Part shown: one piece after another, positions 3,877 to 56,624 of the stretch | Layout of the letters: each line of letters starts with the position of its first letter | Numbering within the stretch: the stretch's first letter is position 1 | Assembly (NCBI GenBank): GCA_965284385.1 | Contig: OZ260077.1 | Coordinates: 288,329-352,328 of the forward strand | DNA: 64,000 bases | Direction: 5' to 3' | Source of the DNA: Caulobacteraceae bacterium | Lineage (GTDB): Bacteria; Pseudomonadota; Alphaproteobacteria; Caulobacterales; Caulobacteraceae | Made by a program: the position numbers and the translations under genes | The notes under the pieces: generated by a model | Database searches by the model: none | Seen by the model: the letters and a program-made list of their open reading frames with translations, nothing else | What the model was told of the DNA's origin: nothing

Positions 3877-3910
3877 GGTCAGTCTCCTGAAGATGAAATT
3901 CGGTTGAGGA

Positions 3911-11816: not shown

Positions 11817-11823
11817 GGCCGCC

Positions 11824-19600: not shown

Positions 19601-21235
19601 ATGGCAGAAAACGTCCGCGCCATCGACACTTCCCTGGGCGAGGATCGTGACACGGATCGACGCCCTCCCAAGGCGTATCTGGTCGGGGGGGGCATCGCTT
19701 CGTTGGCAGCGGCCGCATTCATGATCCGCGACGGCGACATTCCTGGCCAGCAGATCACGATCCTGGAGGAACTGAACACCATCGGCGGCAGCCTCGACGG
19801 TTCCGGATCGCCTGAGGAAGGCTATGTGTTGCGCGGCGGCCGGATGCTGGAGAGCAAATACCTTTGCACATTCGAGCTGTTCTCTTCCATTCCCGCGCTC
19901 ACCGACGACAAGACAGTCACCCAGGAGATCTTCGAATGGAATGAGACGATAAAGACATCGTCGAAATCACGCTTGTTCCGAAACGGCAAGAGGCAGACCG
20001 CACCGGAGTTCGGCCTCCGCGAGACGCATATCTTGACGATTGAGCGGCTCGCGATCGAACCGGAAGCCATGCTGGGCAGAAGCACGATCGCGGATCAGTT
20101 CGATCCGACGTTCTTCAAAACGGATTTCTGGTTCATGTGGTGCACGACCTTCGCTTTCCAGCCGTGGCACAGCGCCGTTGAGTTCAAGCGGTATCTGGTG
20201 CGGTTCGCCCATATGGTGGGGGGTTTCGAGCGTCTCGAAGGCATTCTGCGAACCGTCTACAACCAGTACGATTCGCTCGTGCGGCCGCTGCGAAAATGGC
20301 TCGACGACCGCGGGGTGGTGTTCGAGATGAACTGCCGCGTCACCGATCTCGTCTTTGGCGGACCGACCGGCCGGGAGTCCGTCGCACGCATTGCGTGCGC
20401 TCGAAACGGCGTGCCGGAGGAGATTGTGATTGACACGGACGACCTCGTGCTGGTGACCCTCGGTTCAATGACCGAGGCGTCAAGCCTGGGCTCAATGGAC
20501 CAGGCGGCGTCGCTCAACGGCAAACGCGACGGCGGCGCCTGGACGCTCTGGGAGACGATCTCGGCGGGTCGGCCTGCATTTGGACGACCTTCCGCCTTCG
20601 CCGATCATATCGGCGAGTCCAAATGGCTGTCGTTCACCACGACCCAGAGCGATCCAACGTTCCTGCACATCGTCCGCGACCTCACAGGCAATGTGCCGGG
20701 CGAAGGGGGCCTGATCACATTCCCCGAGTCGAGCTGGCTAGCGTCCATCGTCATCCCCCACCAGCCACACTTCATCGGTCAGCCTGAAGACGTCAGCGTC
20801 TTCTGGGGCTATGGCCTCGCGGTTGATCAGCCGGGCGATTTCGTCAGAAAGCCGATGTCGGCCTGCAACGGCCGCGAGATCATGACAGAGGTGCTCGGTC
20901 ATCTGGGAATCGGCTCGGGGGCTCCAGGGATTCTGGAAACCTCCATCTGTATCCCCTGCATGATGCCGTTCATCACCAGTCAGTTCCTCCCCCGCGGGAA
21001 GGGGGACCGCCCGCAGGTGATCCCGACCGGATTCACAAATCTGGCGTTCATCGGCCAGTTCTGCGAATTGCCGGATGATGTCGTGTTCACGGTCGAATAC
21101 TCGATCCGTTCGGCACAGGTCGCGGTCTATGAACTCCTGGATCTGAAGCTGACGCCACCGGCGGTTTACAAGGGCCAATCCGACCCACGCGTGCTCTACC
21201 GGGCCTTCAAGGCGCTGCACGACATTCGATCCTGA
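19601..21235 (+). CDS. ohyA: Oleate hydratase (MCRA family)
   Basis: AYLVGGGIASL, GGSLDG, RGGRML, YNQYDSLV, GQFCE, VFTVEYSIRSA. Confidence 0.92.
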   Translation: MAENVRAIDTSLGEDRDTDRRPPKAYLVGGGIASLAAAAFMIRDGDIPGQQITILEELNTIGGSLDGSGSPEEGYVLRGGRMLESKYLCTFELFSSIPALTDDKTVTQEIFEWNETIKTSSKSRLFRNGKRQTAPEFGLRETHILTIERLAIEPEAMLGRSTIADQFDPTFFKTDFWFMWCTTFAFQPWHSAVEFKRYLVRFAHMVGGFERLEGILRTVYNQYDSLVRPLRKWLDDRGVVFEMNCRVTDLVFGGPTGRESVARIACARNGVPEEIVIDTDDLVLVTLGSMTEASSLGSMDQAASLNGKRDGGAWTLWETISAGRPAFGRPSAFADHIGESKWLSFTTTQSDPTFLHIVRDLTGNVPGEGGLITFPESSWLASIVIPHQPHFIGQPEDVSVFWGYGLAVDQPGDFVRKPMSACNGREIMTEVLGHLGIGSGAPGILETSICIPCMMPFITSQFLPRGKGDRPQVIPTGFTNLAFIGQFCELPDDVVFTVEYSIRSAQVAVYELLDLKLTPPAVYKGQSDPRVLYRAFKALHDIRS

Positions 21236-22106: not shown

Positions 22107-22631
22107 ATGTCTGTCGTCCACTCCTTGCGCCACAGGGCGCGCCCGTTCCTGCTGGGCGTCTTTGGGGCGCTGTCGCTGGCGTCCTGCCAGGCCGAGCCCT
22201 CCCATGACCCCTCGCAGACCGTGGACGGCCAGTCGCAGACCTTTGACGGTCAATCCCAGACCGTTGACGGGCTGCGACTTGAGTATGGCGTGGTCGATAG
22301 CGCGACCGTGGCCGCCCACCCCCGGTCCCACCCCGAGTCCGGGATGCACGACGGGCCGCCTTCGGGGACCGATCACGTCACGCTCGCTGTGTTCGACGCC
22401 GCAACAAACCGGCGCATCGATGACGCCGAGGTGTCCCTGAGCATCAGCGGGCCACATAACCCCGGCCCCGGAGCCGGGCCGCTGGAACTCATGCCCCTGG
22501 ACGGTTTCGCCACCTACGGCGGCTATGTCTCGCTTCGGCGACCCGGGCGCTACCTGCTGACCTTTCACGTGGCGCGCCCTGGTCGGCGTGATGATCCGGT
22601 CAGGGCCGTCTTCGCCTATGAACGGTCGTGA
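22107..22631 (+). CDS. Putative lipoprotein, P19/Tp34-like metal-binding fold suspected
   Basis: Lipobox ALSLASC; AHPRSHPESGMH...HVTLAVFD...M...YGGYV pattern. Confidence 0.6.
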   Translation: MSVVHSLRHRARPFLLGVFGALSLASCQAEPSHDPSQTVDGQSQTFDGQSQTVDGLRLEYGVVDSATVAAHPRSHPESGMHDGPPSGTDHVTLAVFDAATNRRIDDAEVSLSISGPHNPGPGAGPLELMPLDGFATYGGYVSLRRPGRYLLTFHVARPGRRDDPVRAVFAYERS

Positions 22632-23974
22632 CAGGCCGCGCCGGGTGACGGTTCGGCGGCGCCGGGGCACTCATCAATGTCGGCCACGGTTGCCGGCAGA
22701 ACGAGGACCGGCGCGAAACCACCGCCCGGCGTGCGCATGTTGGTGGTCTGCCCCTGGTAGAGCCGGGCGGCCGCGAGCAGCATCCTTCCCCCGTAGGTGT
22801 AGAGGCGCACATCGACCTTCAGACTGACCGGCTCGGCGGCGGGCGGGATGCGTCGTTCTCCCGGAGCGGCATAGGTCTGGGCGACGTAGGTGGCGTTCTT
22901 GATCTCTTCCCAGACCCGCCGGGTGAGTTTGTCGCCGCGGTAGGCCGCCTTGCTGGCGTGGCCCCGGGCCGGCTTGAAGAACCAGTTGCGCCGGTCCGCC
23001 CAAAGCTCGGCGGCGTTTTCCGGCCGTACGAGGATGGTGCGGGGAACGGCCGCCGCAAGAACCGCGGCCGGCTCCGCCGCCAGTCCCCAGCTGCGCAGGC
23101 TGTCGGGGTCGGACAGCAGGGTGAGGTTCTGCTTGTCCGCGAGGCGGCTATAGATGTGCGGGTTGGGCGTGACCACCACCAGGCCTCGCTCATAGGCCTG
23201 CCTCAGGACCGCATGGGTCGGCTGCTCCAGCAGAAAATCGACGAGGCGATTGTAGACGATGTCCACCCGGACGCCGCCGAGCATCAGCGCATCACCTACG
23301 ATCGTCAGATCGCGAGGGTCCGCGACAAGGGCTTCAAGGCCGGCCGCCCGAAGCTGGGCCTGGGCGAGCCTGAACTCCGGGTAAAGCGGCTGCGCCTGCG
23401 GATCATCATCGAGGATGGCCACCGTTGCGGGCGTCCCTTTCCCGTTTTGCAGTCGCCACTCTTTACGGAACATCTCGCCGACCTGCTGCTGGAACGCAGC
23501 GGGTCCGGGCGTTTCGACACCGGCGACGACGCCGGCGCAACAGATCTGCTGCGAGCGGGCGAGAACCGCGTTCAGGAAGGCGCCTCCGGCGTTGGTGTTG
23601 ATCTCGATGAGCTTGGGGCCGGAAGGCGTGACGTGGAAGTCATACCCCATGAAGACACCATGAGGACCGGGATCCCGACGTGCGAGCGGGGGCGTCCATG
23701 CAGCCGCCGCTTCGCGATAGCCGGGTAGCATTACCGCCGTTTCCGCGGCCGCGACCACGGCCATCATCCGGTCGAGCGTCTCCGCGGGCAGGAAGACGGG
23801 GGACCGCGCGAACAGCCAGGGGTGGGTTTCCGCCAGGTCCGCGGCAAATCCGGGGATCCCCGTCTCACGATCAAGCGCGGCCGCGAGGGCCGTCTGATCC
23901 ACCCCCACGCAGAAGCAGCCGCCGTTTAGCTGGTCTGCGCGTACGGAGCCGGCCGAGGGCGACAGGTCGGACAT
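22616..23974 (-). CDS. ATP-grasp (glutathione synthetase/circularly permuted-type) ligase
   Basis: GYDFH...PKLIEINTNAGG; VYNRLVDF; FFKPARGHASKAAYRG; YVAQ; DVRLY...GGF. Confidence 0.75.
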   Translation of the reverse strand: MSDLSPSAGSVRADQLNGGCFCVGVDQTALAAALDRETGIPGFAADLAETHPWLFARSPVFLPAETLDRMMAVVAAAETAVMLPGYREAAAAWTPPLARRDPGPHGVFMGYDFHVTPSGPKLIEINTNAGGAFLNAVLARSQQICCAGVVAGVETPGPAAFQQQVGEMFRKEWRLQNGKGTPATVAILDDDPQAQPLYPEFRLAQAQLRAAGLEALVADPRDLTIVGDALMLGGVRVDIVYNRLVDFLLEQPTHAVLRQAYERGLVVVTPNPHIYSRLADKQNLTLLSDPDSLRSWGLAAEPAAVLAAAVPRTILVRPENAAELWADRRNWFFKPARGHASKAAYRGDKLTRRVWEEIKNATYVAQTYAAPGERRIPPAAEPVSLKVDVRLYTYGGRMLLAAARLYQGQTTNMRTPGGGFAPVLVLPATVADIDECPGAAEPSPGAACHDRS

Positions 23975-24023
23975 CAATGAACGGGCCTCCTTGTGGTGGC
24001 GAACCGGCGTGAACCGCGCCGGG

Positions 24024-25193
24024 TCACCGGTCAAGGCCGAGCAGCCGCGACGTGTGGCGGGCGATCACGCGTTCTTCATCTGTGCGGATCATCCGGACGG
24101 TGACGGGAGCGCCGACCGGGCTCAGGCGTCCAGAACCGCGACGATTGGCGGCCGGGTCGAGTTCGACCCCCAACCAGGCGAGCCGTGCGCAGGTCTCCGC
24201 GCGGATCCGCGGCGAATTCTCGCCGATGCCCGCGGTGAAGACCAGACCGTCGAGACCCTCCAGGCTCCCCGCCAGGGCCGCGACCTCGCGCGCCGCCCGA
24301 TAGACGAACAGATCGACCGCCTCCCGCGCGGCCGGGCTGTCGCTTTCCAGCAAAACCCGCATGTCGCCACTGAGACCCGAGACGCCCAGCAGGCCGGAGC
24401 GCCGATAGAGCAGATCGACCAATCCGGCGGCGTCGAGGCCCCCGGCTTGCTGCAGATAGAGCACCACCCCAGGGTCCAGGCTCCCACAGCGCGTGCCCAT
24501 GACCAGGCCGTCGAGCGGCGTGGCGCCCATGGTGGTGTCGATGCTCCGGCCGTTCCTCAGCGCGCAAAGGCTCGCGCCCGAACCCAGATGGGCCGCAACC
24601 ACGCGTCCCTCAGCCATCGACGGATCGAGCATCGCAAGCTGTCCGGCCACAGACTCGTAGGACAGGCCGTGGAAGCCGTAGCGGCGAAGCCCTCTGGCTT
24701 CCCAGAGCCGGGGCAGACCCAGCCGATCCGCCACGGGGTCGTGACCGCCATGGAAGGCGGTATCGAACGTCAGGACCTGAGGCAGATCGGGACACGCCTT
24801 GCGGAGCGCCCGGACCCCCGCAAGTCCTTGCTGCTGGTGCAGGGGCGCAAGCGGGGCAAGGGCCTCAAGGCTCTCGAGAACGGGGTCGGAGGCGGCGACC
24901 GCCTGGCTGAAGTCGGGGCCGCCGTGGACCACGCGATGTCCGACCGCAGCCACGGGCCCGGCCAGTCGCGCCTCCACCCAACGCAAGAGATCTGACGTCG
25001 CGTCGTCGCCCCCGGCGACCCAGGGCGTTTCGGACAGGACGCCGCCGGCGGCGTCCTGGCTCACGAGCCGTCGACCCGCGCCGTTAGATTCGATCCGGCC
25101 CCTCAACACCGGTGCAAGGTGTCCCCGGGCGGCTTCGAACACGCCGAACTTGACCGTGGAGGAGCCGATGTTGAGGGCGAGGACAGGCGGCAT
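24024..25193 (-). CDS. ackA: Acetate/propionate kinase
   Basis: LALNIGSSTVKF, GHRVVHGG, FDTAFH, RRYGFHGLSY, AHLGSGAS, GTRCG, VFTAGIGENS, RTDEE. Confidence 0.95.
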   Translation of the reverse strand: MPPVLALNIGSSTVKFGVFEAARGHLAPVLRGRIESNGAGRRLVSQDAAGGVLSETPWVAGGDDATSDLLRWVEARLAGPVAAVGHRVVHGGPDFSQAVAASDPVLESLEALAPLAPLHQQQGLAGVRALRKACPDLPQVLTFDTAFHGGHDPVADRLGLPRLWEARGLRRYGFHGLSYESVAGQLAMLDPSMAEGRVVAAHLGSGASLCALRNGRSIDTTMGATPLDGLVMGTRCGSLDPGVVLYLQQAGGLDAAGLVDLLYRRSGLLGVSGLSGDMRVLLESDSPAAREAVDLFVYRAAREVAALAGSLEGLDGLVFTAGIGENSPRIRAETCARLAWLGVELDPAANRRGSGRLSPVGAPVTVRMIRTDEERVIARHTSRLLGLDR

Positions 25194-25390
25194 CCTGGCG
25201 TTGACCTCGGGCTGGCGCACGCCGGGCGTGCTGTTCACGTCCTGACGCAGCCAATCCTCGCCCGTTACAGACCCGACCGCGCCGGCCGCCTCGCCGCCCT
25301 CACCCTCGATCCGGGCGCGGCGTAATACTTTGCCGCCGGCGGCGTCTGACAGGCAGCGATGTTCAGTCTCTCCCGAAAGGATTCAGCCCC

Positions 25391-26508: not shown

Positions 26509-26522
26509 TTGATCTATCGCAA
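26509..26522. promoter_or_regulatory. FixK/FNR-type box
   Basis: TTGATCTATCGCAA (TTGA-N6-GCAA), centred about 65 nt upstream of the ECF sigma ATG. Confidence 0.65.
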
Positions 26523-26580: not shown

Positions 26581-27267
26581 ATGAGCCTGAATTGCGCCTC
26601 CATATTGACCGCGGCCGGGACAGCGCGCGCTCCGCTCGGCCTTGTCCCGGCGTCGGCCCGTCCCGAGGACATTCACCAGCTCGTGGAACTCCGGCTTCGA
26701 AAGGGCCGGGCCGGCCATTTGCGTTTCCTCAGGCGACGCCTCCGGTCCCAGGAAGACGCCGAAGACGTTCTGCAGGAGTTCGCCCTGAAGGCCACCCAGG
26801 GTGCAAGACGCGTGACCAACCCCGGCAAGATTGACGCATGGCTCGGCATCGCGCTGCGCAACGCCCTGTTCGACCGCTACAGGCGCAATGCGAGCCGTAC
26901 ACGGCTGAATGAGGCCATGCTGTCGGAGTTTCCTGTACCCGCCGCAGATGATGCGCCCGAGGGTCTGGACCGGGCTTTGCAATGCTTGGCGGGAGCACTG
27001 GACGACCTGGGGCCGGAGACCGCCCAGCTCCTGCGGCGCGCCGAGCTCCAGGAGACGCCTCTGAAGGTGATCGCCCGTGAGATGCAGCTGACCACCAACA
27101 ACATCGGTGTTCGGGTCCACCGCGCCCGGGCGGCGCTGCGGGAACGCATGCAGGCGCGTTGCGGCGCCTGTCCGGAGCCCTGCGCCCTCGCGGCGCGGTG
27201 GAGGCAAGCCGTCGATACGGCGGGTCAGGCCTCGATATCGATCATATCGCCATGCGCCGCCGCATAG
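26581..27267 (+). CDS. ECF sigma-70 factor with Cys-containing C-terminal tail
   Basis: Region 2 (AEDVLQEFALKA...WLGIALRNALFDRYRR) and region 4 (LKVIAREMQLTTNNIGVRVHRARAAL), then CGACPEPC. Start uncertain. Confidence 0.8.
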   Translation: MSLNCASILTAAGTARAPLGLVPASARPEDIHQLVELRLRKGRAGHLRFLRRRLRSQEDAEDVLQEFALKATQGARRVTNPGKIDAWLGIALRNALFDRYRRNASRTRLNEAMLSEFPVPAADDAPEGLDRALQCLAGALDDLGPETAQLLRRAELQETPLKVIAREMQLTTNNIGVRVHRARAALRERMQARCGACPEPCALAARWRQAVDTAGQASISIISPCAAA

Positions 27268-28751
27268 TCGAGCGCATAGGCGAGTTCGCCCGCCGTCTCG
27301 GCGTGCACCGTCAACAATGGCTGGCCCGCTGAGACTTCGGTGCCCAGGCGCACCTGCATCTGGACGCCGGCGGCCTTGCGTTCAGGCGCGCCAGCCAGTT
27401 TGGCGAGCGTAGCGACCTGGCGGTTGTTGATGAGGATGACGCGGCCGGATCGGGTCGCATGGATGGGCGCCCGCTGGGCCGCGACGGGCGGTGTGCGCAT
27501 GCCCCCTTGCGCCTCGCAGATCCGCTCAAATCTTGCCCAGGCGCGACCATCAGCGAGAACAGCCTCGGCCGCTTGGGCGCCCAGACCCGCTTTCGCCACG
27601 CCGGCGAGTTCGAGCGCGGCGCCCGCCAGCAGGCAGGCGCGTTGGCGCAGGTCCTGCGGCGCTTCGGGTCGGTTCTGCAGCACCGCCAGGACATCAAGCG
27701 CTTCCAGCGCCGGGCCGATGCCGACGCCGACCGGCTGCTCCCCGTCGGTCTGAACGCAGAGGGCCTTCAGGTCGAACCGGGCCGCGATCTCGACGAGCCG
27801 TTTCGCCAACTTCGCGGCCGCCTCTCTCGTCCGCACCTTGGCGGTGGAGCCTACGGGAATGTCCAGCACCACATGGGTGGAACCCGCCGCGATCTTCTTG
27901 GACAGAACCGAGGCGATCAGCTGGCCTTCGGTGTCGACGTCGAGGACCCGCTCTACACGGATAAAGATGTCGTCGACCGGGCTGAGCTTCACAGCCCCGC
28001 CCCAGACGACGCAGCCGTTCTCGGCTTCCACCACGCGGCGCATGGCGGGCAGATCGAGATCGACCGGCGCCAGGGTCTCCATGGTGTCGGCCGTGCCGGC
28101 CGGTGAAGTGATGGCCCGCGAGGAGGTCTTGGGCGTGACCAGGCCGCAGGCGGCGAGGATGGCGACGACGATCGGCGTCGTGCGGTTGCCGGGAAGTCCG
28201 CCGATGCAGTGTTTGTCCATGACGATATCCGACGGCCAGCTCAGGCGGTCGCCGACGTCCACCATGGCCCGGGTCAGCGCCCCCGTCTCGGCGTCGTCCA
28301 TCGGCAGCACCGATGTCGCGGTCAGAAAGGCCGCGAGATGGATCGGCGTGTATCGCCCGGCGGCCACGTCCCTGACGACACCCCGGATCGCGGCTTCATC
28401 CAGCCGCGCTCCATAGATCCGGCGGCGAACGCTGGACATGGATTCGATGGCCGGAGCGTGTCGCACGACGACGGGATCGCCCGGCGCCACCGCCAACTGC
28501 CGCCAGGCCTCTTCGGAGAGCGCCGCCTCGTCGAGGCCGAGAACGTCGCCGTCCATCTGGTACAGGGTGGCGTAGACCTCCCGGCCGGCGGCCGAAAGCA
28601 CCACCTGGGAGCGGGACGACAGGCCTTCGGAGCGGCAGACGTGGCAGTCGCGCCGCATCAGCACGATCGACTCGTGCTGGGCGTACAGGCCGAAGCGGCG
28701 CGCTTTGAGGGGCGCCGCCGCATGGGGTGCAGTCTTGACCACTTTGCTCAC
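27225..28751 (-). CDS. Thymidine-phosphorylase family, AMP-phosphorylase-like
   Basis: DKHCIGGLPGNRTT, PKTSSRAITSPAGTADTME, SKKIAAG, plus an N-terminal extension. GTG start overlaps the upstream stop (GTGA). Confidence 0.88.
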   Translation of the reverse strand: MSKVVKTAPHAAAPLKARRFGLYAQHESIVLMRRDCHVCRSEGLSSRSQVVLSAAGREVYATLYQMDGDVLGLDEAALSEEAWRQLAVAPGDPVVVRHAPAIESMSSVRRRIYGARLDEAAIRGVVRDVAAGRYTPIHLAAFLTATSVLPMDDAETGALTRAMVDVGDRLSWPSDIVMDKHCIGGLPGNRTTPIVVAILAACGLVTPKTSSRAITSPAGTADTMETLAPVDLDLPAMRRVVEAENGCVVWGGAVKLSPVDDIFIRVERVLDVDTEGQLIASVLSKKIAAGSTHVVLDIPVGSTAKVRTREAAAKLAKRLVEIAARFDLKALCVQTDGEQPVGVGIGPALEALDVLAVLQNRPEAPQDLRQRACLLAGAALELAGVAKAGLGAQAAEAVLADGRAWARFERICEAQGGMRTPPVAAQRAPIHATRSGRVILINNRQVATLAKLAGAPERKAAGVQMQVRLGTEVSAGQPLLTVHAETAGELAYALDYAAAHGDMIDIEA

Positions 28752-30106
28752 AGCTCGTGCCGCTCCATCATCTGCGGGATGACGCAGTCCCATCCGAGCC
28801 GGTCCTGAATCCGGACCCGCAGGGCGTCCGCCGCATGGGGCTCGCCGTGAACGATGAAGGTCTTGCGCGGCGGTCGCTTGAGGCCGGAAAGCCAGCGCAG
28901 GATTTCCTCGTAGTCGGCGTGGGCCGAGAGCATCGGCAGGTTGGCCACCTCCGCTTTGACCTGAACCCACTGACCGTGGATCTTCACCTCCTTGGCGCCC
29001 TCGACCATCGAACGCCCGCGGGTTCCTGCCGCCTGGAAGCCTGAAAACAGGATGGTGTTGCGCCGGTCCGGGCCGAAGGCCTTGATATGGTGGAGCACCC
29101 GCCCGCCGGTGGCCATGCCGCTGGCCGAAAGGATGACCTTGGGCATGGGGCTGGCGGTGAGTTTCTTGGAGGCGTCCACATCGCGCACATAGGTGGCGAT
29201 GCCGCAGGCGGCGTCGCACACGTCGGCCGGCATGCGGTGGTCCTCCAGGTGCGCGCACAGGAGGTCGGTGGCGTTGATCGCCATGGGGCTGTCCATATAG
29301 ATCGGCGTCAGGCCGATCCGCCCCGCCTGCTTCAGCCGCCAGATGTGGTACAGCAGCGACTGGGCCCGGCCGACGGCGAAGGTGGGAATGACCACGGTCC
29401 CGCCGCGCGCGGTGGTGCGTTCGATGATCTCGCCGAGGGCTTCCGTGGGGTCCTGGGGGTCATGGAGTCGGTCGCCATAGGTCGATTCCACCACCACATA
29501 GTCGGCCTCCGCCACCGGCTCGGGATCGACCATGGTGGCGTCGCCGTAGCGGCCGAGATCACCGGAAAACAGGATGGTCGTCCCGTTCCACGTCACCTCG
29601 GCGGTGGCCGCGCCGAGGATGTGCCCGGCGCGCCGCAGCGTCAGGCTGGCTCCGCCCGGCAGCTGGACCGACGTGTGGAACGGCGTCGGGGCGAACCGCT
29701 CCACCGCGCGTTCGGCGTCGTGCACGCCATAGAGGGGCAAGGCCGGCTTGTGTTTGCCGTAGCCGTAGCGGTTGGCCTGTTCGGCGTCCTTTTCCTGGAT
29801 ATGGCCGCTGTCGCGCAGAATGATCTCCGCGACATCCCGCGTCGCGGCGCTGGCCAGGATGGGCCCGCGAAAACCGTCCTTCACCAGTTTCGGCAGGTAG
29901 CCGGAGTGGTCCAGGTGGGCGTGGGTCAGGACCACCGCGTCGATGCTTGAGGGCTCGATCTGGAGGGGGGCCCAGTTCTGTTCGCGCAGGGTCTTGAGGC
30001 CCTGGAAAAGGCCGCAGTCGATCAGGATGCGGCGGCCATCGGCCTCCAGCAGGTGTTTTGATCCGGTGACGGTGCCGGCGCCGCCGAGGCTGGTGAGACT
30101 GATCAC
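28748..30106 (-). CDS. MBL-fold beta-CASP nuclease (YSH1/RNA-processing type)
   Basis: GGAGTVTGS, DCGLFQG, LTHAHLDHSG, ESTYG, FAVGRAQ, SAHAD. GTG start overlaps the xfp stop. Confidence 0.9.
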   Translation of the reverse strand: MISLTSLGGAGTVTGSKHLLEADGRRILIDCGLFQGLKTLREQNWAPLQIEPSSIDAVVLTHAHLDHSGYLPKLVKDGFRGPILASAATRDVAEIILRDSGHIQEKDAEQANRYGYGKHKPALPLYGVHDAERAVERFAPTPFHTSVQLPGGASLTLRRAGHILGAATAEVTWNGTTILFSGDLGRYGDATMVDPEPVAEADYVVVESTYGDRLHDPQDPTEALGEIIERTTARGGTVVIPTFAVGRAQSLLYHIWRLKQAGRIGLTPIYMDSPMAINATDLLCAHLEDHRMPADVCDAACGIATYVRDVDASKKLTASPMPKVILSASGMATGGRVLHHIKAFGPDRRNTILFSGFQAAGTRGRSMVEGAKEVKIHGQWVQVKAEVANLPMLSAHADYEEILRWLSGLKRPPRKTFIVHGEPHAADALRVRIQDRLGWDCVIPQMMERHEL

Positions 30107-32484
30107 GATGGAGATCCTTCCGGGGGTGAAACTTGCAGGACGCGGGGGTGTGCTTCGCCGCGGACGGCGGCCAGCTCCCCGGGTGTCAGGACATCGGCCG
30201 CGTCGGCGCCGAGGAGGTCCGCACAGGCGACCGCGGCGTGAGCCCAGGTGCAGCGGTTGGCGAACAGCATGCCGGGGGTGTCGAGCGTCCCGCCACGGCT
30301 GAGGTAGCCGAGCGCCCGGGTGCGCTCGGGCCCTCCGTCGAGGCGGCGCAGCAGTCCGAGCATCGGCTCCGGGCGGGTGTGGGTGAGGATCAGACGGGGA
30401 AGGCGTCGGGGAAAGAGCGCTTCCAGCGCCTCGGCCGAGACCACGTGCGCCGCCTCGATCTCGTCCCTCGGGGCCCGGAATCGTCCCGGTTCGAGCAGAG
30501 CCGTGACACAGGCGCGGCGGCCATGATGCGTGAGTCGCGCAGCCGCCGCCAGCGCTTCCCGCGCCTGGTAGGCGCCGACCGCAACGATCTGGATCTCGGC
30601 CCTGTCCAGGTCCCCGGCGATGAGCGCCGCGCCCCGCTCCCAAAGATCCTGGGCCGCGGCCCCGTCGAGCACCTGCGGCAGCGTCCGTTTGGGCGTGATC
30701 AGGCAGGCGACCTCGCCGCGCCGGCCGTAGACCCCGCGGAGCGCGGCGACGGCGCTGTTGGCGTCCAACGGGAACAGCACCCGGGCGGTGTCCGACATCT
30801 CCCCGAGCAGGGCCTCGGCGAGCGTGGGATCCTGGTGCGACTGTTCGTTCTTGCCGTTCTCCCAGGTGTGGGATGTGGCCAGCAGCGGGACGGCGAGCCA
30901 TCCGGGGACCTGGCCGCTCTCGCGCTGATGGCGCGCGAAAATCACCTCCTGGCGCAGGAGACCCAGCATCTTCACCGCAAACGCTTCGTAGCTGACGATG
31001 AGATTGAGCCCGCCCTTGTTGCCGAGCGCGGCGCCGGCCACCGCTTCTTCATTGAGGGCGGTGATCACCGCCCCGTCGATCGCCTCGGGAACGCCGGGTT
31101 CCGGTCGGTTCACCCGGTGGCCAAGCCGGTCGAGCGTACGCCCCATGCCATTGCTGCGAAGCTCGTCGGGATTGCCGAGGCGGACGCGCAGGCCCGGGTT
31201 GGCGTCGACGAATTCCACGAACCAGGCGTCGATCGCCTCCATCGGGGACCTCGCCCTGTCCGACCAGTCCGGAATGGGCCGCTCGGGCGGCGGCGGCGCG
31301 CGCCGCGCGGCCGGATGGCGGCTTTCCAAAGGCCGGCGCTGCAGGTCGTGGGTCGTGAGAACCCCCAGGGCGGCGTCGAGCTCGCTTCCCTGCACGAACA
31401 GCGCCGCCGCCGCGGCGTTGAACGCCGCCCGCGCCCCCTCGTCCGTTCGAGGATCGCCCTCCAGTGGCAGGTTGTGGGCGCGGTTCGTCCCGGCGCCTGG
31501 AAAGCCAAACCCCTTGACCGCCCGCGCGATCACATAGGGCAACGCCGCCGGATAGGCCCGGGCGGGATCCGCTGTGAAGCGCTTCATCCGCTCGTCGGAG
31601 TCGAGAATGGCCCACGCCACGGCGGCTGGATCGTGACCGTCGATCTGGATCGGGTCGAAACCGTTCAGGCGCAGGTGTCGTTCGAGCCAGCCCGCGCCGC
31701 CGTCCTGGGCGATCTCCGTGCGCTCCTCTATGCGCCGCCCGTTGAGGATCATGAGGGGCGTCACCAGGCCGCAGTCTTCCGCCCGCCACCAGCGCGGGGA
31801 CCAGTCGGAGCCACGCTGCTCCTCGAAGGCGCCGTCGCTCAGGAAGGCGACAAGGCTCTCCCCGCGCAGCGGCATGTGGACATATTCGAGCTCGGCGAAG
31901 CCCAGATAGCCGCCCTCCGAGACGGCTCCGGCCGTGTCCGGCCCGGCATGGCTGCCAAGCGGCGCGGCGGGCCGGCCGTCGGCGCCAATGGCGTAGCTGT
32001 AGAAGTCCGAAACGAGCTGGGACAAGCCGGCGTCCGAGCGGCTGTACCGACCCTTTTGCCGGGCAGAGACATCGCCGGTCAGCGCATTGACCGCCTCGAT
32101 CGCAGCGACGCAGTGCCCCTGGCCCATAATCCAGGACCGCGTGACGCCGGACAGGGCGTTCGCCAGCAGATAGCCGACGAAGGCCGGGACCATGTTCAGC
32201 GAGCCGCCGGTATGGCCCTCCGGCAAGTCCTTGAAGGCTTCCGTCGGCAAGGGCGCTCCGGACAGATCCACCCGGCGTGCATAGGTCATGTGCGCCACCA
32301 GCCACATGCCGGCGCTCGCCAGCCGATCGGCGGCGGCCACCAGACGGTAGACCGACTCCTCGTCCGGCCAGACGCCTCGGCGCACGAGACGCTGCGCCAT
32401 GTCCTCGATCCGCGTGACGGTGTCGGCTTGCCGGACCAGAGGCCCATAGCCGGGTTTCCACGTTTCGGCCCAGGTGATCGACAC
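30103..32484 (-). CDS. xfp: Xylulose-5-P/fructose-6-P phosphoketolase
   Basis: GHTGGSLN, MGQGH, FLSDGAFEEQ, ILNG, NPDELRSN, SYEAF, SHTWENGKNEQSHQDP; about 793 aa. Confidence 0.88.
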   Translation of the reverse strand: MSITWAETWKPGYGPLVRQADTVTRIEDMAQRLVRRGVWPDEESVYRLVAAADRLASAGMWLVAHMTYARRVDLSGAPLPTEAFKDLPEGHTGGSLNMVPAFVGYLLANALSGVTRSWIMGQGHCVAAIEAVNALTGDVSARQKGRYSRSDAGLSQLVSDFYSYAIGADGRPAAPLGSHAGPDTAGAVSEGGYLGFAELEYVHMPLRGESLVAFLSDGAFEEQRGSDWSPRWWRAEDCGLVTPLMILNGRRIEERTEIAQDGGAGWLERHLRLNGFDPIQIDGHDPAAVAWAILDSDERMKRFTADPARAYPAALPYVIARAVKGFGFPGAGTNRAHNLPLEGDPRTDEGARAAFNAAAAALFVQGSELDAALGVLTTHDLQRRPLESRHPAARRAPPPPERPIPDWSDRARSPMEAIDAWFVEFVDANPGLRVRLGNPDELRSNGMGRTLDRLGHRVNRPEPGVPEAIDGAVITALNEEAVAGAALGNKGGLNLIVSYEAFAVKMLGLLRQEVIFARHQRESGQVPGWLAVPLLATSHTWENGKNEQSHQDPTLAEALLGEMSDTARVLFPLDANSAVAALRGVYGRRGEVACLITPKRTLPQVLDGAAAQDLWERGAALIAGDLDRAEIQIVAVGAYQAREALAAAARLTHHGRRACVTALLEPGRFRAPRDEIEAAHVVSAEALEALFPRRLPRLILTHTRPEPMLGLLRRLDGGPERTRALGYLSRGGTLDTPGMLFANRCTWAHAAVACADLLGADAADVLTPGELAAVRGEAHPRVLQVSPPEGSPS

Positions 32485-32679: not shown

Positions 32680-33129
32680 TTATGCGCGGGGGCCCATGCG
32701 CCCCGCGTCGGCCCAGGACAGCGCAAGGGCCACCACCCACGGCAGGGTGAAGCCCAACAGCAGCCATCTGAAATCGGAGTTGATGGCGAAGTTGGTGACG
32801 GCCATGCCGCCGATCGATACCAGCCCCGAGACGGCCGCGATCATCGTCGCGCCGCGCCGGCCAGACCGGAAAGTCGTCATCGCGACATGGACGGTCAGCA
32901 GACCGGTGGCGAGCATATAGCCCCCGAGCACGCCGAAGACGCGCCGGAGCCACGGGGCCAGCCGGGGCAGGATGTCCTGGATCTGCGCCACGGTGGATCC
33001 CATGTATCTGGCGTCTTCAGGCAGCAGCGCCGGTCGCATGAAGACGAAGTAGAGTCCCAGGCCGATGAGGATCAGTCCCCCCACGGCGAGAGCGCCCGCC
33101 GCGAGAGACCGCAACCTCACCCCGGTCAT
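32680..33129 (-). CDS. Hypothetical membrane protein
   Basis: Four hydrophobic segments; ATGA-type overlap with the upstream gene. Confidence 0.65.
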   Translation of the reverse strand: MTGVRLRSLAAGALAVGGLILIGLGLYFVFMRPALLPEDARYMGSTVAQIQDILPRLAPWLRRVFGVLGGYMLATGLLTVHVAMTTFRSGRRGATMIAAVSGLVSIGGMAVTNFAINSDFRWLLLGFTLPWVVALALSWADAGRMGPRA

Positions 33130-33620
33130 GGAAGCCGTTCGTCCCGGTGATCGGACGGGGCTTGACGGCCACCCAACTCGATCAGATCCGTCTGACCAAA
33201 GGATCGGCTGTAATCCAGAAGTGACACAATGGTCGGGCGCAGGCGAACGACAGCCACCCCCTCGAACACCGCCGCCGGCGCAGGCCGCCCCGGTCTGGGA
33301 AACTTCTTCAGAACCAGTCCGGCCACGTTCAACAGCTCCCCGGGGTCCGTAACCCGCTGCGCCACCGCCGCGAGCGAGATCGCCTGGATGGGTTTCGACG
33401 TCTCATGCTCGGGGGTGACGGTCGCTGACACCCGGGAGTCCCGGGCGATGTTTTCCAGCTTCTGCGAGTGAAAAGTCGTCCCGAAATAGAGGTCGAGGTC
33501 GTCGTTCACGAAACTCACGACCGTCGCCTGCGGCCAGCCGTCTTCACGGACCGTCGCCACGGTCAGGGTGTCTGCCCGGCTGAGAATGGAGAGGATCAAC
33601 TCTCTCTGTTCAAGGTCCAA
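33126..33620 (-). CDS. Pyridoxamine-5'-phosphate-oxidase-like FMN-binding protein
   Basis: LTVATVREDGWPQATVVSF...LYFGT...KLENIARDSRVS; TTG start with GGAGG RBS. Confidence 0.8.
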   Translation of the reverse strand: MDLEQRELILSILSRADTLTVATVREDGWPQATVVSFVNDDLDLYFGTTFHSQKLENIARDSRVSATVTPEHETSKPIQAISLAAVAQRVTDPGELLNVAGLVLKKFPRPGRPAPAAVFEGVAVVRLRPTIVSLLDYSRSFGQTDLIELGGRQAPSDHRDERLP

Positions 33621-33699
33621 CTCAAATCCTCCAGGCGGCAAGCGACGTTGGACGGCGACAGCAGAGTGCGCGGGAGCTCCGCCGTGCCGCCCTCAACAG

Positions 33700-39361: not shown

Positions 39362-40447
39362 TTACAAATCTATCTCGGGCAGCGGCGACTCCGACGTCCA
39401 GACCCGCTTCCCGGCGAACAGGTCGTTGTCGATCCCCATGGCCAGATCCGTCGCGGCGATCGACCGGCGGCCCGACGTCTCGCGTCCGTCGAGCGCCCTT
39501 ATGGCGTCGATGGTTTCCGGCACGACGATCGCCTGATTGTCGACCATATAGGCGTAGAAGAGTTCATCGCCCTGCACCGTGAGCATGTCGGCCCAAAGCG
39601 CCACCTCATAGAGGTCGCTGCGGGATCGGCCCCGATCCGCCATCAGCTCCTTGACGGCATTGAGGGCATCCAGACCATACTCGTCCTTCATCAGCAGGAT
39701 GCGTGACGAGGATCGGAAGGCGTCGAGCACTTCCTCCTTGGCCGCCGGTCGGGTCATCTGGACCGACCAGTAGTGCAGGTGGGCGATGGTCTCCGGCACC
39801 TTGACCGCCATGGTCACCACATCGAGGTCCGGATCGACGGTTTGGGCGTCGGGACCCTGGTGACTGGGGATTTCGGGCTCCGGGACGAGGGTGTTCATGA
39901 TGCCGCCCTGGTGGCTTTCCCACGGATCGGTCGCGCGTCGAAGCAGGGTGCCCCGGGCCCGTAGAAGCAGACCGGCGCGCTTGAGAGCGCCCAATGTCCG
40001 TACCGTCGCGGTCGTATTGCAGGAGACCACCCGGGTCGCCTGGCGGCCGACAGCCGTCTCGTAATTGGCCTCCGCGACGAAAGAGTGTCCCGTGACGGCG
40101 TGCTTCTCTCCCCCCTGAAGGATGAACTTCAGGCCCCGGGCTCGGTAGAGGGGAACGTTGTCCGCCGCCACGTGCTTGGGCGTGCAGTCAATGATGACAT
40201 CGACCTCGCCCAACAGATCGTCCAGCTGACCGGCCGTTTGGCGTCCCGCGGCCCGGAGTTCGTCAAATGCCTTGGGCGTGGCGGCAAAGAGCGGCACGCC
40301 CTTGGTCTGAAGGACCCGGGTGCGCCAGTCCGTCGCGACGTCGGCGACGCCGATCAGGGTCATGTCCTTCTGAGCCTTGACCGCATCGGCGACGCGTTTG
40401 CCGATGACGCCATATCCGTTCACGGCGACCCGTATTGGTTTGATCAT
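39362..40447 (-). CDS. gap: Type II (archaeal-type) glyceraldehyde-3-phosphate dehydrogenase
   Basis: VAVNGYGVIGKRVADAV, DCTP, QGGEK, VVSCNTT, RRATDP, PSHQGPD. Confidence 0.9.
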   Translation of the reverse strand: MIKPIRVAVNGYGVIGKRVADAVKAQKDMTLIGVADVATDWRTRVLQTKGVPLFAATPKAFDELRAAGRQTAGQLDDLLGEVDVIIDCTPKHVAADNVPLYRARGLKFILQGGEKHAVTGHSFVAEANYETAVGRQATRVVSCNTTATVRTLGALKRAGLLLRARGTLLRRATDPWESHQGGIMNTLVPEPEIPSHQGPDAQTVDPDLDVVTMAVKVPETIAHLHYWSVQMTRPAAKEEVLDAFRSSSRILLMKDEYGLDALNAVKELMADRGRSRSDLYEVALWADMLTVQGDELFYAYMVDNQAIVVPETIDAIRALDGRETSGRRSIAATDLAMGIDNDLFAGKRVWTSESPLPEIDL

Positions 40448-40512: not shown

Positions 40513-40613
40513 AGTTCGGCGCGCCGGCGCATGTCACTCTGGGTCGATGGCGGATGAACCGGAAGCCCGACACGAATGACCGCAAAAGCCGCATCGTGGG
40601 CGGATCGCAGCGA

Positions 40614-45040: not shown

Positions 45041-45979
45041 TCAGCCGGCCAGGTCCATACTCGCGAGAGCTTGCTGCAAAGCCTTTGCGGATGCACCCAG
45101 CATTGTGTTCTCCGCGGGGGACAGCGCCGGCAGCAAAATCCTCTCGACCCCGCCGGCCCCGAGGATGCACGGAAGGCTGAGGCATACATCGGCGAAGCCG
45201 TATTGTCCGGTCAACAGCGTCGACACCGGCAGCACCGCCCGCTCATCGCGCAGTATGACCTCGCATATCCGCACAATCGCGGTCGCGACGCCGAAGGACG
45301 TGTAGCCCTTTCCCTGGACGATACGGTAGCCGGCGTCGCGCACTTCCGTGGCGATCTGGTCCTGGTCGAGTTCCTGTCCCGAAGGACAGAAATCGCTTAG
45401 CGGCAGCCCTCCGACCAGGACCGTAGAGAATGCGGCCACCTCGGTATCGCCATGCTCACCCAGAACGACCCCATCAATGGACCCGGCCGCGACCCTCAGG
45501 CTCTCGGCGAGGGCTTGTTTGAGACGGCTGGAATCGAGCAATGTGCCCGTGCCGATGACCCTCGCTGCGGACAAGCCTGAGCGCCGCAGCGCCACCAGCG
45601 TCATCAAATCCACCGGGTTGGCGGCGACAAGGATGATCCCCGTGAAACCGGCCTGGACCAGTTCTCCGACGCAGGTCGAGACGATCATGGCGCTTTGCGA
45701 CGCGACCGACAGGCGACTTTCCGCGCCGTGCGTCGCTGCTCCGGCGGTGATAACGGCGATCCGGGCTGTCGCCGCATCGGCGTAGCTTCCCGCCCAGATG
45801 CGCGCGGGTCTGGCAAGGGCGTTCGCATCGGAGAGGTCGGCGGCTTCGGCCTCGGCGAGCCCGGCGTCACTGTCGATCAGGACGATCTCGCGGACCAACG
45901 CGCGAAGCATCAGCGCATAGGCGGCCGTCGATCCGACGTGGCCTGCACCGACGATCACAATCCGGTCGTGTGCGATCAT
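45041..45979 (-). CDS. ldh: L-lactate dehydrogenase family
   Basis: IVGAGHVG, ANPVD, GTLLDSSR, GEHGD, KGYTSFG. Confidence 0.88.
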   Translation of the reverse strand: MIAHDRIVIVGAGHVGSTAAYALMLRALVREIVLIDSDAGLAEAEAADLSDANALARPARIWAGSYADAATARIAVITAGAATHGAESRLSVASQSAMIVSTCVGELVQAGFTGIILVAANPVDLMTLVALRRSGLSAARVIGTGTLLDSSRLKQALAESLRVAAGSIDGVVLGEHGDTEVAAFSTVLVGGLPLSDFCPSGQELDQDQIATEVRDAGYRIVQGKGYTSFGVATAIVRICEVILRDERAVLPVSTLLTGQYGFADVCLSLPCILGAGGVERILLPALSPAENTMLGASAKALQQALASMDLAG

Positions 45980-55688: not shown

Positions 55689-56624
55689 TCATCCTGGACC
55701 CTCGGTGGCGCCGGCATCGGAACGGCGGCGGCGCACCAGCCCCGCGGCCTCAGGTTCACGCAGCGCCGACGCCAGCAGCGGCGCCAGGGAGATGGCGTTG
55801 CTCGGGTGCGGCACGCTGTCGGTGGACACCACCTGATCAGACACCCGGGCCAGTTCCTCGAAGGCGTTATCGGCGAACACCGCATGCACGACGACGCAGA
55901 CCGGCGGCTTCAGACCCTGGGCCTGGAGCCGCCGGGCGGCCTCGATCAGGGTGCGTCCCGAGGAGGCGATGTCGTCGATCAGCACGGGCCGTCTGCCGGT
56001 CCAGGCTTCGAGATCGGGCAGAACGATCTCGACCTCGCGATCGCCCCGGCGGATCTTGCGCAACACAATATGCGGGGCTCCCACCCGGGCGGCGACGGCC
56101 GCGACCCATTGTTCGCTCTCCTCATCCGGACCGATGATCAGGGCATCCGGAACCTCGGCCGCGATCCAGTCCGCCAGCACGGGCGCCGCGTGCAGCGTCG
56201 CGGTCGGAATGGCGTAAAGGGCCGCCAGATCCGGATAGCGGTGGAGGTGGGGGTCCACCGTGATCAGTCGGTCGAACGCCCCGGAGAGCAGACGGGCGAA
56301 CGGACGGGAGGTGACCGCTTCCCCGGGTTTGAACCGCCGGTCCTGGCGCATATAGGCGAGGTAGGGCGCGATCAGGCTCACCTGCGCGGCGCCGAGATCC
56401 CGCGCCGCGTCGGCCGCGAACAGCAGGCTCAGAAAGCCCGGGTCCGGGCGGGCCAGGCTGCAGACCAGATCGACCGTCCGCCCCGCCATATCCGAGAGGT
56501 GACGGACGTAGCTCTCGCCGTCCGGAAAGCGACGTGTTTCGAGACGGCCCAGTTCGAACCCGCCGGCCGTGGCGAGCCGTTTGGCGAAGGCCTCATTTCC
56601 AGGCAGCGGCACGATCAGTCGCAC
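55689..56624 (-). CDS. prs: Ribose-phosphate pyrophosphokinase-like protein
   Basis: RFPDGE, PYLAYMRQD, VDPH, LRKIR, DDIASSGRT. Confidence 0.9.
   Translation of the reverse strand: MRLIVPLPGNEAFAKRLATAGGFELGRLETRRFPDGESYVRHLSDMAGRTVDLVCSLARPDPGFLSLLFAADAARDLGAAQVSLIAPYLAYMRQDRRFKPGEAVTSRPFARLLSGAFDRLITVDPHLHRYPDLAALYAIPTATLHAAPVLADWIAAEVPDALIIGPDEESEQWVAAVAARVGAPHIVLRKIRRGDREVEIVLPDLEAWTGRRPVLIDDIASSGRTLIEAARRLQAQGLKPPVCVVVHAVFADNAFEELARVSDQVVSTDSVPHPSNAISLAPLLASALREPEAAGLVRRRRSDAGATEGPG

Follow-up and report, generated by a model that had tools for sequence, protein, structure and literature searches.

A candidate nucleotide-ribose salvage module of Proteobacteria, built around an archaeal-type nucleotide phosphorylase, in the cargo of a conjugative element from a Caulobacteraceae bacterium

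Among the described systems closest to the genes considered here are the archaeal pentose bisphosphate pathway, reportedly the subject of work by Sato in 2007 and Aono in 2012 and 2015, and the PhnN route to phosphoribosyl pyrophosphate (PRPP) in Escherichia coli, said to have been described by Hove-Jensen in 2003. The genes lie in a stretch of 64,000 nt (the window hereafter; ~68% GC) of Caulobacteraceae bacterium GCA_965284385.1, contig OZ260077.1, positions 288,329-352,328, and encode a deeply divergent phosphoketolase-family protein (Xfp-like), a beta-CASP ribonuclease and a phosphorylase resembling archaeal AMP phosphorylases. The archaeal pathway combines a nucleoside-5'-monophosphate (NMP) phosphorylase, DeoA, with a ribose-1,5-bisphosphate (R15P) isomerase and form III RuBisCO (PMC9700705, PMC8376864), and the phosphorylase of Thermococcus kodakarensis (Tk-AMPpase) accepts all NMPs as substrates (PMC8376864; PMC9700705). 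A non-carboxylating variant in haloarchaea uses R15P derived from nucleosides or nucleotides independently of RuBisCO, and requires R15P isomerase, ribulose-1,5-bisphosphate (RuBP) phosphatase and ribulose-1-phosphate (Ru1P) aldolase (PMC9700705). The E. coli route, as given in PMC9700705, leads from ribose 5-phosphate (R5P) through ribose 1-phosphate (R1P) and R15P to PRPP, with PhnN as the PRPP-forming ribose-1,5-bisphosphokinase whose known substrate is R15P (PMC9700705).

Comparison of the locus with these systems suggests that the trio is this element's copy of a widespread proteobacterial module for the salvage of nucleotide ribose, probably active under low oxygen, a reading to which we give even chances. 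The three genes are tightly joined, a TGA stop and a GTG start sharing 4 nt at both junctions, which read ATCGTGATC between Xfp-like and beta-CASP and GCTGTGAGC between beta-CASP and phosphorylase; the GTGA overlaps reported in a preliminary description of this stretch were thus found by direct reading of the sequence. All three open reading frames (ORFs) have a coding-type GC content at third codon positions of 0.84-0.88, and a Shine-Dalgarno-like GGAAGGA lies ~8 nt 5' of the beta-CASP GTG. The start of Xfp-like is consistent with the N-terminus of its family, in which W9, G12 and G14 are invariant, and that of the beta-CASP protein matches residue 4 of RNase TTHA0252 from Thermus thermophilus. 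The phosphorylase start is less certain, an alternative GTG 9 nt downstream yielding 505 aa and gene callers in relatives choosing 505 or 522 aa; with any choice the genes of the trio overlap or lie <=5 nt apart. At the level of the family, the identities first proposed for the three genes (phosphoketolase, beta-CASP nuclease and AMP phosphorylase) also hold in searches of Pfam, NCBIfam and the PDB. Exact-sequence look-ups of the window's own proteins gave no match, and a relative of 88% identity was used instead.

The phosphorylase has the thymidine-phosphorylase fold, with the domains Glycos_trans_3N, Glycos_transf_3 and PYNP_C all above the Pfam gathering cut-off, and passes both NF003338 (659 > 434) and TIGR02645, the archaeal-type 'putative thymidine phosphorylase' (563.8 > 434.6). 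It fails the equivalog models of the thymidine and pyrimidine phosphorylases (NF004490, 200 vs 269; TIGR02643, 144 vs 571; NF004747, 147 vs 559), and its top match in the PDB is Tk-AMPpase (4GA5, 324 bits, vs 138 bits for thymidine phosphorylases), to which it is ~45% identical across the aligned region. The extra N-terminal domain that AMP phosphorylases carry ahead of the helical domain (~85-100 residues) has its counterpart in residues 1-108, which precede Glycos_trans_3N; it is partly covered by the 4GA5 match, which begins at residue 50 of the query and residue 35 of the chain. Alignment with Tk-AMPpase and with E. coli DeoA and TrpD further revealed the AMPpase-type motifs GGLPGNRTT, PKTSSRAITSPAGTAD and DDIFIRVER, which correspond to GGVPGNKTN, PKTSSRAITSAAGTAD and DDITIKAER of Tk-AMPpase and differ from their counterparts in DeoA (GGV-GDVTS, PMISGRGLGHTGGTLD and ADKRFYAT); the KHST- and KRFY-type motifs of thymidine phosphorylases are replaced. 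These features support a placement of the protein with the archaeal NMP phosphorylases rather than with the thymidine phosphorylases. The claim of an AMP-phosphorylase-type enzyme is therefore borne out by its nearest solved relative and its active-site motifs, although it falls below the cut-off of the AMP_phos equivalog TIGR03327 (468.8 vs 535 bits), a point that counts against the assignment.

Two further features are invariant in the bacterial clade of this phosphorylase, namely the CxxC-containing R-x-D-C-H-V-C-R-x-E-G-L of the N-terminal domain (residues 33-44) and an acidic D-x-D-x-E (LDVDTEGQ, residues 270-277) at a place where Tk-AMPpase has SIDPTGL. They might serve in switching by redox state or metal, or provide an additional site for metal binding.

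The natural fusions of the phosphorylase point to its product. A search of 1.84 billion cluster representatives recovered 634 clusters at E<=1e-30, several of the best 150 being overlong. All nine of the tested homologues of ~590-690 aa are PhnN-phosphorylase fusions (TIGR02322, 160-208 bits vs a cut-off of 156), in which the PhnN domain is N-terminal and the phosphorylase half belongs to the subfamily of the window protein, and a 724-aa homologue (P0379) unites the phosphorylase with a PRPP synthase (Prs) of the same NF005537 subfamily as the one encoded in the window. Since relatives are fused to PhnN or to this Prs subfamily, the family would be expected to release R15P from 5'-phosphorylated nucleosides, with PRPP formed next; the fusions are the best available evidence for this short of an assay. 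PhnN itself was searched for and found neither in the window nor in the 80 loci described below. In three independent lineages the fusion stands in an operon of the order transporter > QRPTase-family phosphoribosyltransferase > PhnN-phosphorylase, an arrangement that looks like a PRPP-recycling loop in which base + PRPP would give a nucleotide, the nucleotide another base + R15P, and R15P again PRPP. The chemistry of the phosphorylase would accordingly also be used in PRPP economy, and the QRPTase neighbour argues no less for a supply or recycling of PRPP than for a yield of ATP.

In the loci concerned (L091, L092-L095 and L097-L098) the fusion always follows the QRPTase and the transporter, frequently with genes for a SIR2_2 protein and a molybdenum hydroxylase close by. 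Homologues of 900-1017 aa were also recovered (P0405, P0435, P0438-P0440, P0445, P0480, P0502 and P0505); the three that were scanned (P0405, P0440 and P0502) carry an intein with a LAGLIDADG endonuclease within the catalytic domain, and these intein-bearing forms are probably archaeal AMP phosphorylases.

The beta-CASP protein combines Lactamase_B with Beta-Casp (110.6) and RMMBL (67.6) domains in Pfam, and its closest solved relative is TTHA0252 (267 bits, homology at the level of 47% identity). It shares with that RNase the order of domains and all metal and beta-CASP motifs, the 452-aa protein presenting metallo-beta-lactamase (MBL) motifs 1-4, beta-CASP motifs A-C and the RMMBL domain, with all seven motifs complete (D30, HAHLDH at 62-67, H162, D183, E207, H396 and H420). 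It differs in a 17-residue insert at ~108-124 and in being always operon-linked to the phosphorylase. On these grounds it is predicted to be an RNase yielding 5'-NMPs. In two sediment metatranscriptomes a high-depth contig joins position 29119 to 29993, omitting 873 nt of the beta-CASP gene, with 33 nt on one side; this contig is most likely chimeric or unrelated rather than a real deletion form.

The Prs-like gene noted in the preliminary description is present in the cargo, displaced by ~25 kb from its usual place beside the phosphorylase. The nearest structure in the PDB is the class III Prs of Methanocaldococcus jannaschii (1U9Y), and the protein retains the motifs FPDGE, RQD, DPHLH, GPD, the K-x-R loop and DDIxSSGRT; the corresponding set (FPDGE, RQD, DxH, GPD, K-x-R loop, DDIxSSGxT) is conserved among 69 orthologues. 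By comparison with the PhnN fusions, the substrate of this module-specific subfamily might be R15P, as against R5P.

The distribution of the module was traced with patterns derived from the phosphorylase, which retrieved at least 600 stretches from a species-level genome collection, 599 of them encoding a relative. The best 80 of these at least 600 loci were examined with 10-kb flanks by tblastn with the window proteins; some of the 80 derive from one and the same mobile island. Represented are Alpha-, Beta- and Gammaproteobacteria, together with single metagenome-assembled genomes labelled Myxococcota, Gemmatimonadales, Streptomycetaceae and Weeksellaceae. Prs-like is found no more than 10 kb from the phosphorylase in 70 of the 80 loci and immediately downstream in 51, and the beta-CASP gene is present in 59 and immediately upstream in 53; Xfp-like occurs in 21 and AckA in 11. 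The commonest gene orders are beta-CASP > phosphorylase > Prs (27), phosphorylase > Prs (15) and Prs > Xfp > beta-CASP > phosphorylase (9). A 4-nt NTGA overlap is possible at 45 of 52 beta-CASP > phosphorylase junctions of other species, at 34 of 51 phosphorylase > Prs junctions and at 4 of 13 junctions between Xfp-like and beta-CASP. Based on these adjacencies and overlaps, the conserved, translationally coupled unit is that of beta-CASP, phosphorylase and Prs-like (the core trio hereafter), with Xfp-like as an accessory. The link to Prs-like is the strongest signal, the two genes being adjacent in most of the 80 species and fused in one relative. Unsupervised clustering of the neighbouring ORFs uncovered no further family in more than 30 of the 80 loci. 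The trio as it had been delineated at the outset therefore survives in part, its linkage of beta-CASP and phosphorylase, extended by Prs, being conserved and its xfp gene being accessory.

The linkage with Xfp-like is not peculiar to this element, uniqueness having been named beforehand as a result that would speak against the proposed pathway: it recurs in those 21 loci, in six different gene arrangements relative to the core and on 15 plasmids, and on Agrobacterium and Sulfitobacter plasmids Xfp-like lies inside tight operons. An Alteromonas plasmid has AckA directly upstream of Xfp-like without the core trio. Loci with Xfp-like are enriched both in type II glyceraldehyde-3-phosphate dehydrogenase (GAPDH-II; 7 of 21 positive vs 2 of 59 negative loci, p ~0.001) and in AckA (6 of 21 vs 5 of 59, p ~0.03). 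The proximity of acetate kinase in some relatives lends indirect support to acetyl-phosphate as the product of Xfp-like from xylulose 5-phosphate or fructose 6-phosphate.

The Xfp-like protein itself could be called a phosphoketolase only in part. It scores above the Pfam thresholds for XFP_N (PF09364, 44.5 > 23.7) and XFP (PF03894, 129.9 > 22), and the XFP_C domain goes undetected by Pfam, although a profile alignment reaches the C-terminal domain of 3AHC. The same kind of alignment, to the phosphoketolases of Bifidobacterium longum and B. breve, shows that the thiamine pyrophosphate (TPP)/Mg motif is kept, as are H64, H97, H142, D182, N215, H320, E437, S440, N441, E479, Y501, N549, H553 and K605, which count as catalytic or cofactor-binding residues in phosphoketolases. 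On the other side, the protein is ~25% identical to characterised phosphoketolases, fails all six NCBIfam phosphoketolase models (required scores 777-1518 bits; best score 118 bits vs a cut-off of 962) and carries the changes H548>K545, Q546>N543 and R442>G446, which recur clade-wide as H548>K, Q546>N and R442>G/H; all of this weighs against a standard phosphoketolase step. We consider Xfp-like to be probably a working TPP enzyme of the phosphoketolase type. The NCBI annotation is 'xylulose 5-phosphate 3-epimerase'. Its resemblance to the heterolactic and bifid fermentation branch of Xfp and acetate kinase lies in the XFP domains, in relatives that adjoin acetate kinase and in the presence of GAPDH and lactate dehydrogenase (LDH) on the same island, with the TPP/Mg motif and most of the putative catalytic residues kept in the alignment; the low identity, the score far below the NCBIfam cut-off and the three substitutions set it apart.

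The ackA gene was located elsewhere in the cargo, as first described. An ORF at 22616-24034 on the minus strand (452-472 aa) overlaps its stop by 11 nt and adjoins ackA in a Brevundimonas relative too. This ORF has no match in Pfam, NCBIfam or the PDB sequences; its alignment-based structural model (pLDDT 80.6, vs 34 for the single-sequence model) adopts a glutathione-synthetase-type ATP-grasp fold, resembling eukaryotic-type glutathione synthetase and glutathionylspermidine synthase in circularly permuted form, and it belongs to a large family of 'hypothetical proteins'. It had been considered as an enzyme for the R15P step that the pathway lacks, and was rejected in this role since it is predicted to fold as an ATP-grasp ligase.

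The survival without oxygen for which the pathway had been proposed finds a counterpart in the regulatory surroundings. Four perfect TTGA-N6-TCAA boxes of the FNR/FixK type occur in the window, against 0.15 expected, together with a gene for an FnrN-type regulator of the CRP/FNR family. The four boxes front the divergent promoter region of GAPDH-II and a HAD-family gene, a PNPOx gene, the regulator gene itself and a cytochrome c gene. The box at 40499 heads an array of 11 genes on the minus strand, which starts with GAPDH-II and ends with the trio. In Bradyrhizobium diazoefficiens, bll3117-bll3116-bll3115 encode phosphorylase, Prs and MBL protein, and bll2518-bll2517 encode a phosphoketolase-family protein and acetate kinase, both with FixK2 boxes (PMC9104804). 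In a fixK2 mutant these operons are down 6.6-30.6-fold and 10-fold, respectively (PMC9104804), and the products of both belong to the 62 proteins with the strongest induction in microoxia (PMC6515984); FixK2 also targets oleate hydratase and PNPOx-cytochrome c (PMC9104804). The window holds the families that this regulon comprises (core trio, phosphoketolase-AckA, oleate hydratase and PNPOx-cytochrome c), alongside its FnrN-type regulator and boxes; it differs in that the genes are gathered on one island borne by an integrative and conjugative element (ICE). Scarcity of oxygen is probably the condition that turns the module on.

A consensus scan of the window for promoters and terminators gave nothing informative in DNA of 68% GC. 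The idea that the cluster forms part of the lxa locus of Burkholderia cenocepacia was dropped, a term search of the main text of PMC3721108 returning no thymidine phosphorylase, phosphoketolase or beta-lactamase; the table there has a ribokinase and a class II ribonucleotide reductase.

Taken together, these data establish what the genes are at family level, how the operon is built, that it is conserved and that its regulatory setting is one of low oxygen, and they allow a pathway to be proposed, every chemical step of which is deduced from homology and context. The beta-CASP RNase, with its homology to TTHA0252 and intact catalytic motifs, would cut RNA to 5'-NMPs, and the phosphorylase would convert NMP and inorganic phosphate to base and R15P, as its motifs, closest structure and PhnN fusions indicate. 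The dedicated Prs subfamily, coupled to it by adjacency, overlap and one fusion, would link the ribose phosphate to the PRPP pool. In roughly a quarter to a third of the lineages, the present one among them, the divergent phosphoketolase is part of the operon and would probably split a ketose phosphate into acetyl-phosphate and a triose or tetrose phosphate, with acetyl-phosphate giving ATP through AckA and glyceraldehyde 3-phosphate passing through GAPDH-II to pyruvate and through LDH to lactate. With GAPDH-II and LDH the whole scheme would be redox-balanced, which is established for the heterolactic phosphoketolase scheme and carried over to the present case by inference. The part from RNA through NMP and R15P to PRPP is well supported by such inference. 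Its continuation to acetyl-phosphate and ATP, plausible as it may be, is unproven, as the step from R15P or PRPP to a pentose 5-phosphate is missing. Of the complete route suggested in the preliminary description, the passage from R15P to PRPP is thus indicated by the PhnN fusions, and no enzyme leading from R15P to a pentose 5-phosphate is evident. Its statement that the window lacks R15P isomerase and RuBisCO proved accurate, neither the isomerase (IF-2B) nor a RuBisCO domain being found among ~70 window ORFs scanned against Pfam. The same two enzymes, RuBP phosphatase and Ru1P aldolase are likewise lacking among the identified neighbour clusters of the 80 loci, a few clusters of 5-8 loci being unidentified.

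Several observations weigh against the salvage module in the form proposed, in addition to the missed AMP_phos cut-off and the divergence of Xfp-like. Neither the window nor the conserved surroundings of the module yielded an enzyme that would convert R15P or PRPP to a pentose 5-phosphate. PRPP formation costs ATP and therefore fits salvage better than the harvest of energy. Xfp-like is absent from 59 of the 80 loci, and the core therefore does not need it; moreover, the 80-locus counts are not fully independent, since several loci copy the same mobile island. The PhnN-fusion operons contain neither beta-CASP nor Xfp-like. With regard to regulation, no FNR-type box with up to one mismatch stands directly upstream of Xfp-like in the window, and control of the trio by the FnrN-type factor would therefore be indirect, through the box at the head of the array. 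Across species, 15 of 75 loci carry an FNR-like box (<=1 mismatch) in the 250 nt that precede the module, vs 6.2 expected, a modest enrichment over a background that was not restricted to intergenic DNA. A search for RNA-seq of the source organism found none, and the evidence for transcription consists of metatranscriptome contigs of close relatives (sediment and wastewater, 90-99% identity), which cover all genes of the trio, one of them spanning the beta-CASP/phosphorylase junction, and which may contain DNA.

Nearly as likely, if held more tentatively, is a function in PRPP supply and recycling instead of energy harvest. The core trio would then turn RNA-derived NMPs into PRPP for the salvage of NAD, nucleotides and amino acids while low oxygen limits the de novo routes, and Xfp-like, AckA, GAPDH-II and LDH would constitute a separate fermentative branch, fed for example by sugar phosphates from the neighbouring GH65 and beta-phosphoglucomutase, whose tie to the core trio would be no more than joint regulation and joint transfer. 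PhnN and Prs, to which the phosphorylase is found fused, both form PRPP, and the three independent PhnN-fusion lineages stand directly after a PRPP-using phosphoribosyltransferase of the QRPTase family. The core trio without Xfp-like in 59 of the 80 loci, the separate operons of the core trio and of phosphoketolase-AckA in Bradyrhizobium, and the GH65 and HAD phosphomutase genes of the window favour the same view. What it accommodates poorly is the recurrence of Xfp-like within or beside the core trio in six arrangements, sometimes between Prs and beta-CASP and with short gaps or overlaps, for which some metabolite in common would seem to be needed, and the translational coupling of Xfp-like to beta-CASP in the window.

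A more far-reaching version of the salvage module, which we hold to be doubtful, makes of it the proteobacterial equivalent of the archaeal pentose bisphosphate pathway, one that conserves energy and does without RuBisCO. RNA would then be an endogenous fermentable reserve in anoxia, the energy of the glycosidic bond would be kept as R15P, and the Prs subfamily would be non-canonical, acting either as an R15P-dependent PRPP synthase or in the reverse direction (PRPP + AMP > R5P + ATP). Phosphoketolase, AckA, GAPDH-II and LDH would give acetate and lactate with net ATP, and the sister system of QRPTase and PhnN-phosphorylase would be a PRPP-recycling loop using the same chemistry.

Ordinary catabolism of pyrimidine nucleosides, by a thymidine or pyrimidine nucleoside phosphorylase and a generic MBL hydrolase, appears very improbable. 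The database names 'thymidine phosphorylase family protein' and 'MBL fold metallo-hydrolase' would suit it, as would the fold of the phosphorylase; against these stand the scores far below the cut-offs of the respective equivalogs, the replacement of the base- and ribose-binding motifs of thymidine phosphorylase by AMPpase-type ones, the extra N-terminal domain typical of AMPpase, the PhnN fusions, which imply R15P and not R1P as the product, and the complete beta-CASP and RMMBL signature of the MBL protein. Still less credible is a defence or toxin system in which RNase and phosphorylase would destroy RNA and nucleotide pools upon phage attack: the genes do reside on an ICE and on conjugative plasmids and their activities are degradative, but no protein of the trio matches PADLOC, for which reason this reading was set aside, the neighbours are genes of metabolism and metal homeostasis rather than defence, regulation in Bradyrhizobium depends on FixK2 and microoxia, and the module is also found at chromosomal loci in many species. 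An accidental juxtaposition of unrelated ICE cargo, to which the mosaic island and the distance of 25 kb between Prs-like and its partners might lead one, is the least probable of all, in view of a core whose order and overlaps are kept throughout Alpha-, Beta- and Gammaproteobacteria and in further lineages, and of the PhnN and Prs fusions with the phosphorylase.

The system resembles the archaeal pentose bisphosphate pathway in its first committed enzyme, with the extra N-terminal domain and active-site motifs of that enzyme, and in the entry of nucleotide ribose into central metabolism via R15P. It differs in the partners of the phosphorylase, which are a beta-CASP RNase and a Prs-type enzyme (PhnN in the sister lineages), in that R15P appears to go to PRPP, R15P isomerase and RuBisCO being absent both from the window and from the conserved surroundings of the module, in the missed AMP_phos cut-off and in its hosts, which are aerobic or facultative Proteobacteria. 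Lacking the steps of the isomerase and of RuBisCO (or the aldolase), and with a phosphorylase below the equivalog cut-off, it is not a member of the archaeal pathways. With the haloarchaeal variant it would have in common a RuBisCO-independent use of R15P, and the three enzymes which that variant needs are not linked to the trio in the window. The likeness to the E. coli PhnN route lies in R15P as the precursor of PRPP and in the occurrence of the same phosphorylase subfamily as PhnN fusions in sister lineages; in the window R15P would stem from the phosphorolysis of NMPs, and the PRPP-forming enzyme that usually adjoins is a homologue of Prs. Literature searches retrieved no paper characterising the bacterial core trio, a bacterial AMP phosphorylase, the PhnN-phosphorylase fusions or this clade of phosphoketolases annotated as 'xylulose 5-phosphate 3-epimerase', in line with the preliminary description, which knew of none for the module; the genes figure solely as entries of expression tables for Bradyrhizobium.

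The features discussed are collected in the table. The first part of the window (1-12645) is conjugative-element backbone, with a YAcAr/SLOG protein, GcrA, SSB, a Strawberry-notch (Sno)-type helicase of 1420 aa, Toprim/DUF7146 and RadC, and the metabolic island is, judged by these genes, ICE cargo, in accordance with the term used for it from the start. The island also carries a heavy-metal ATPase, an MFS transporter, DUF305, two PNPOx-family proteins, cytochrome c and CusCBA. The ECF sigma factor gene that converges with the end of the operon holds the same place in the Brevundimonas relative. Immediately upstream of Xfp-like and in the same orientation lie a second PNPOx-family ORF (33126-33641) and, on the minus strand, an ORF of 149 aa (32680-33129), for which no family match was found. 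Oleate hydratase, DUF6629 and the cyclopropane-fatty-acid-synthase-like gene suggest that genes for membrane-lipid remodelling travel with the island. The HAD protein is possibly a beta-phosphoglucomutase, given its pairing with GH65, and the pair could supply the fermentative branch with sugar phosphate from a second source (trehalose, maltose or kojibiose).

Table. Features of the gene trio, its associated genes and the regulatory boxes, in positions of the window
Feature	Position	Strand	Basis or remark
Xfp-like, phosphoketolase-family TPP-dependent protein, deeply divergent	30103..32484	-	793 aa; Pfam XFP_N and XFP
GTGA stop/start overlap, Xfp-like/beta-CASP	30103..30106	-	direct sequence reading
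beta-CASP metallo-beta-lactamase, predicted RNase	28748..30106	-	452 aa; Lactamase_B, Beta-Casp, RMMBL domains
GTGA stop/start overlap, beta-CASP/phosphorylase	28748..28751	-	direct sequence reading
Archaeal-type nucleoside-5'-monophosphate (AMP) phosphorylase-like protein	27225..28751	-	508 aa; NF003338 and TIGR02645 passed
Prs-like PRPP synthase, module-specific subfamily	55689..56624	-	NF005537 432 > 322; TIGR01251 192 > 113
Acetate/propionate kinase AckA	24024..25238	-	Pfam Acetate_kinase; TIGR00016 318 > 293
Type II (archaeal-type) phosphorylating GAPDH	39362..40423	-	NF003251 431 > 185
L-lactate/malate dehydrogenase	45041..45958	-	Pfam Ldh_1_N, Ldh_1_C
Perfect FNR/FixK-type box TTGATCCGGATCAA	40499..40512	.	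76 nt upstream of GAPDH-II start
Perfect FNR box	46573-46586		
Perfect FNR box	47392-47405		upstream of the CRP/FNR regulator gene itself
Perfect FNR box	48493		
CRP/FNR-family regulator, FnrN-type C27-x2-C30-x7-C38 ... C126	46583..47359	-	Pfam cNMP_binding, HTH_Crp_2
PAS-HWE histidine kinase	43926-44972	+	
HAD-family hydrolase and GH65 disaccharide phosphorylase	40554-43621	+	divergent from GAPDH-II, same FNR box
ECF sigma factor, convergent with operon end	26584..27267	+	NCBIfam sigma70-ECF; one-mismatch FNR-like box 26509-26522
Oleate hydratase (MCRA)	19721-21235	+	
DUF6629 protein	17919-18575	-	recurrent module neighbour, 13/80 loci
Cyclopropane-fatty-acid-synthase-like methyltransferase	14216-15577	-	

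In the literature searched, NMP phosphorylase and R15P metabolism are treated as traits of archaea (and of the candidate phyla radiation) tied to RuBisCO. The module would place the NMP-phosphorylase entry reaction in hundreds of ordinary Proteobacteria, among them rhizobia, Pseudomonas, Achromobacter, Bordetella and Legionellaceae, where it would be wired to the formation of PRPP and, across many lineages, also to a phosphoketolase. The module would thereby offer a testable function for unexplained FixK2/FNR-regulated genes of the microoxia and nodule datasets (bll3115-3117, bll2518), and it proposes a role for a Prs subfamily and for a phosphoketolase clade so far without one. A large 'thymidine phosphorylase family' appears to be misnamed, and each step of the pathway is directly assayable. 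More generally, the module bears on the survival of anoxia by obligate aerobes and on the fate of ribosomal RNA in dormancy.

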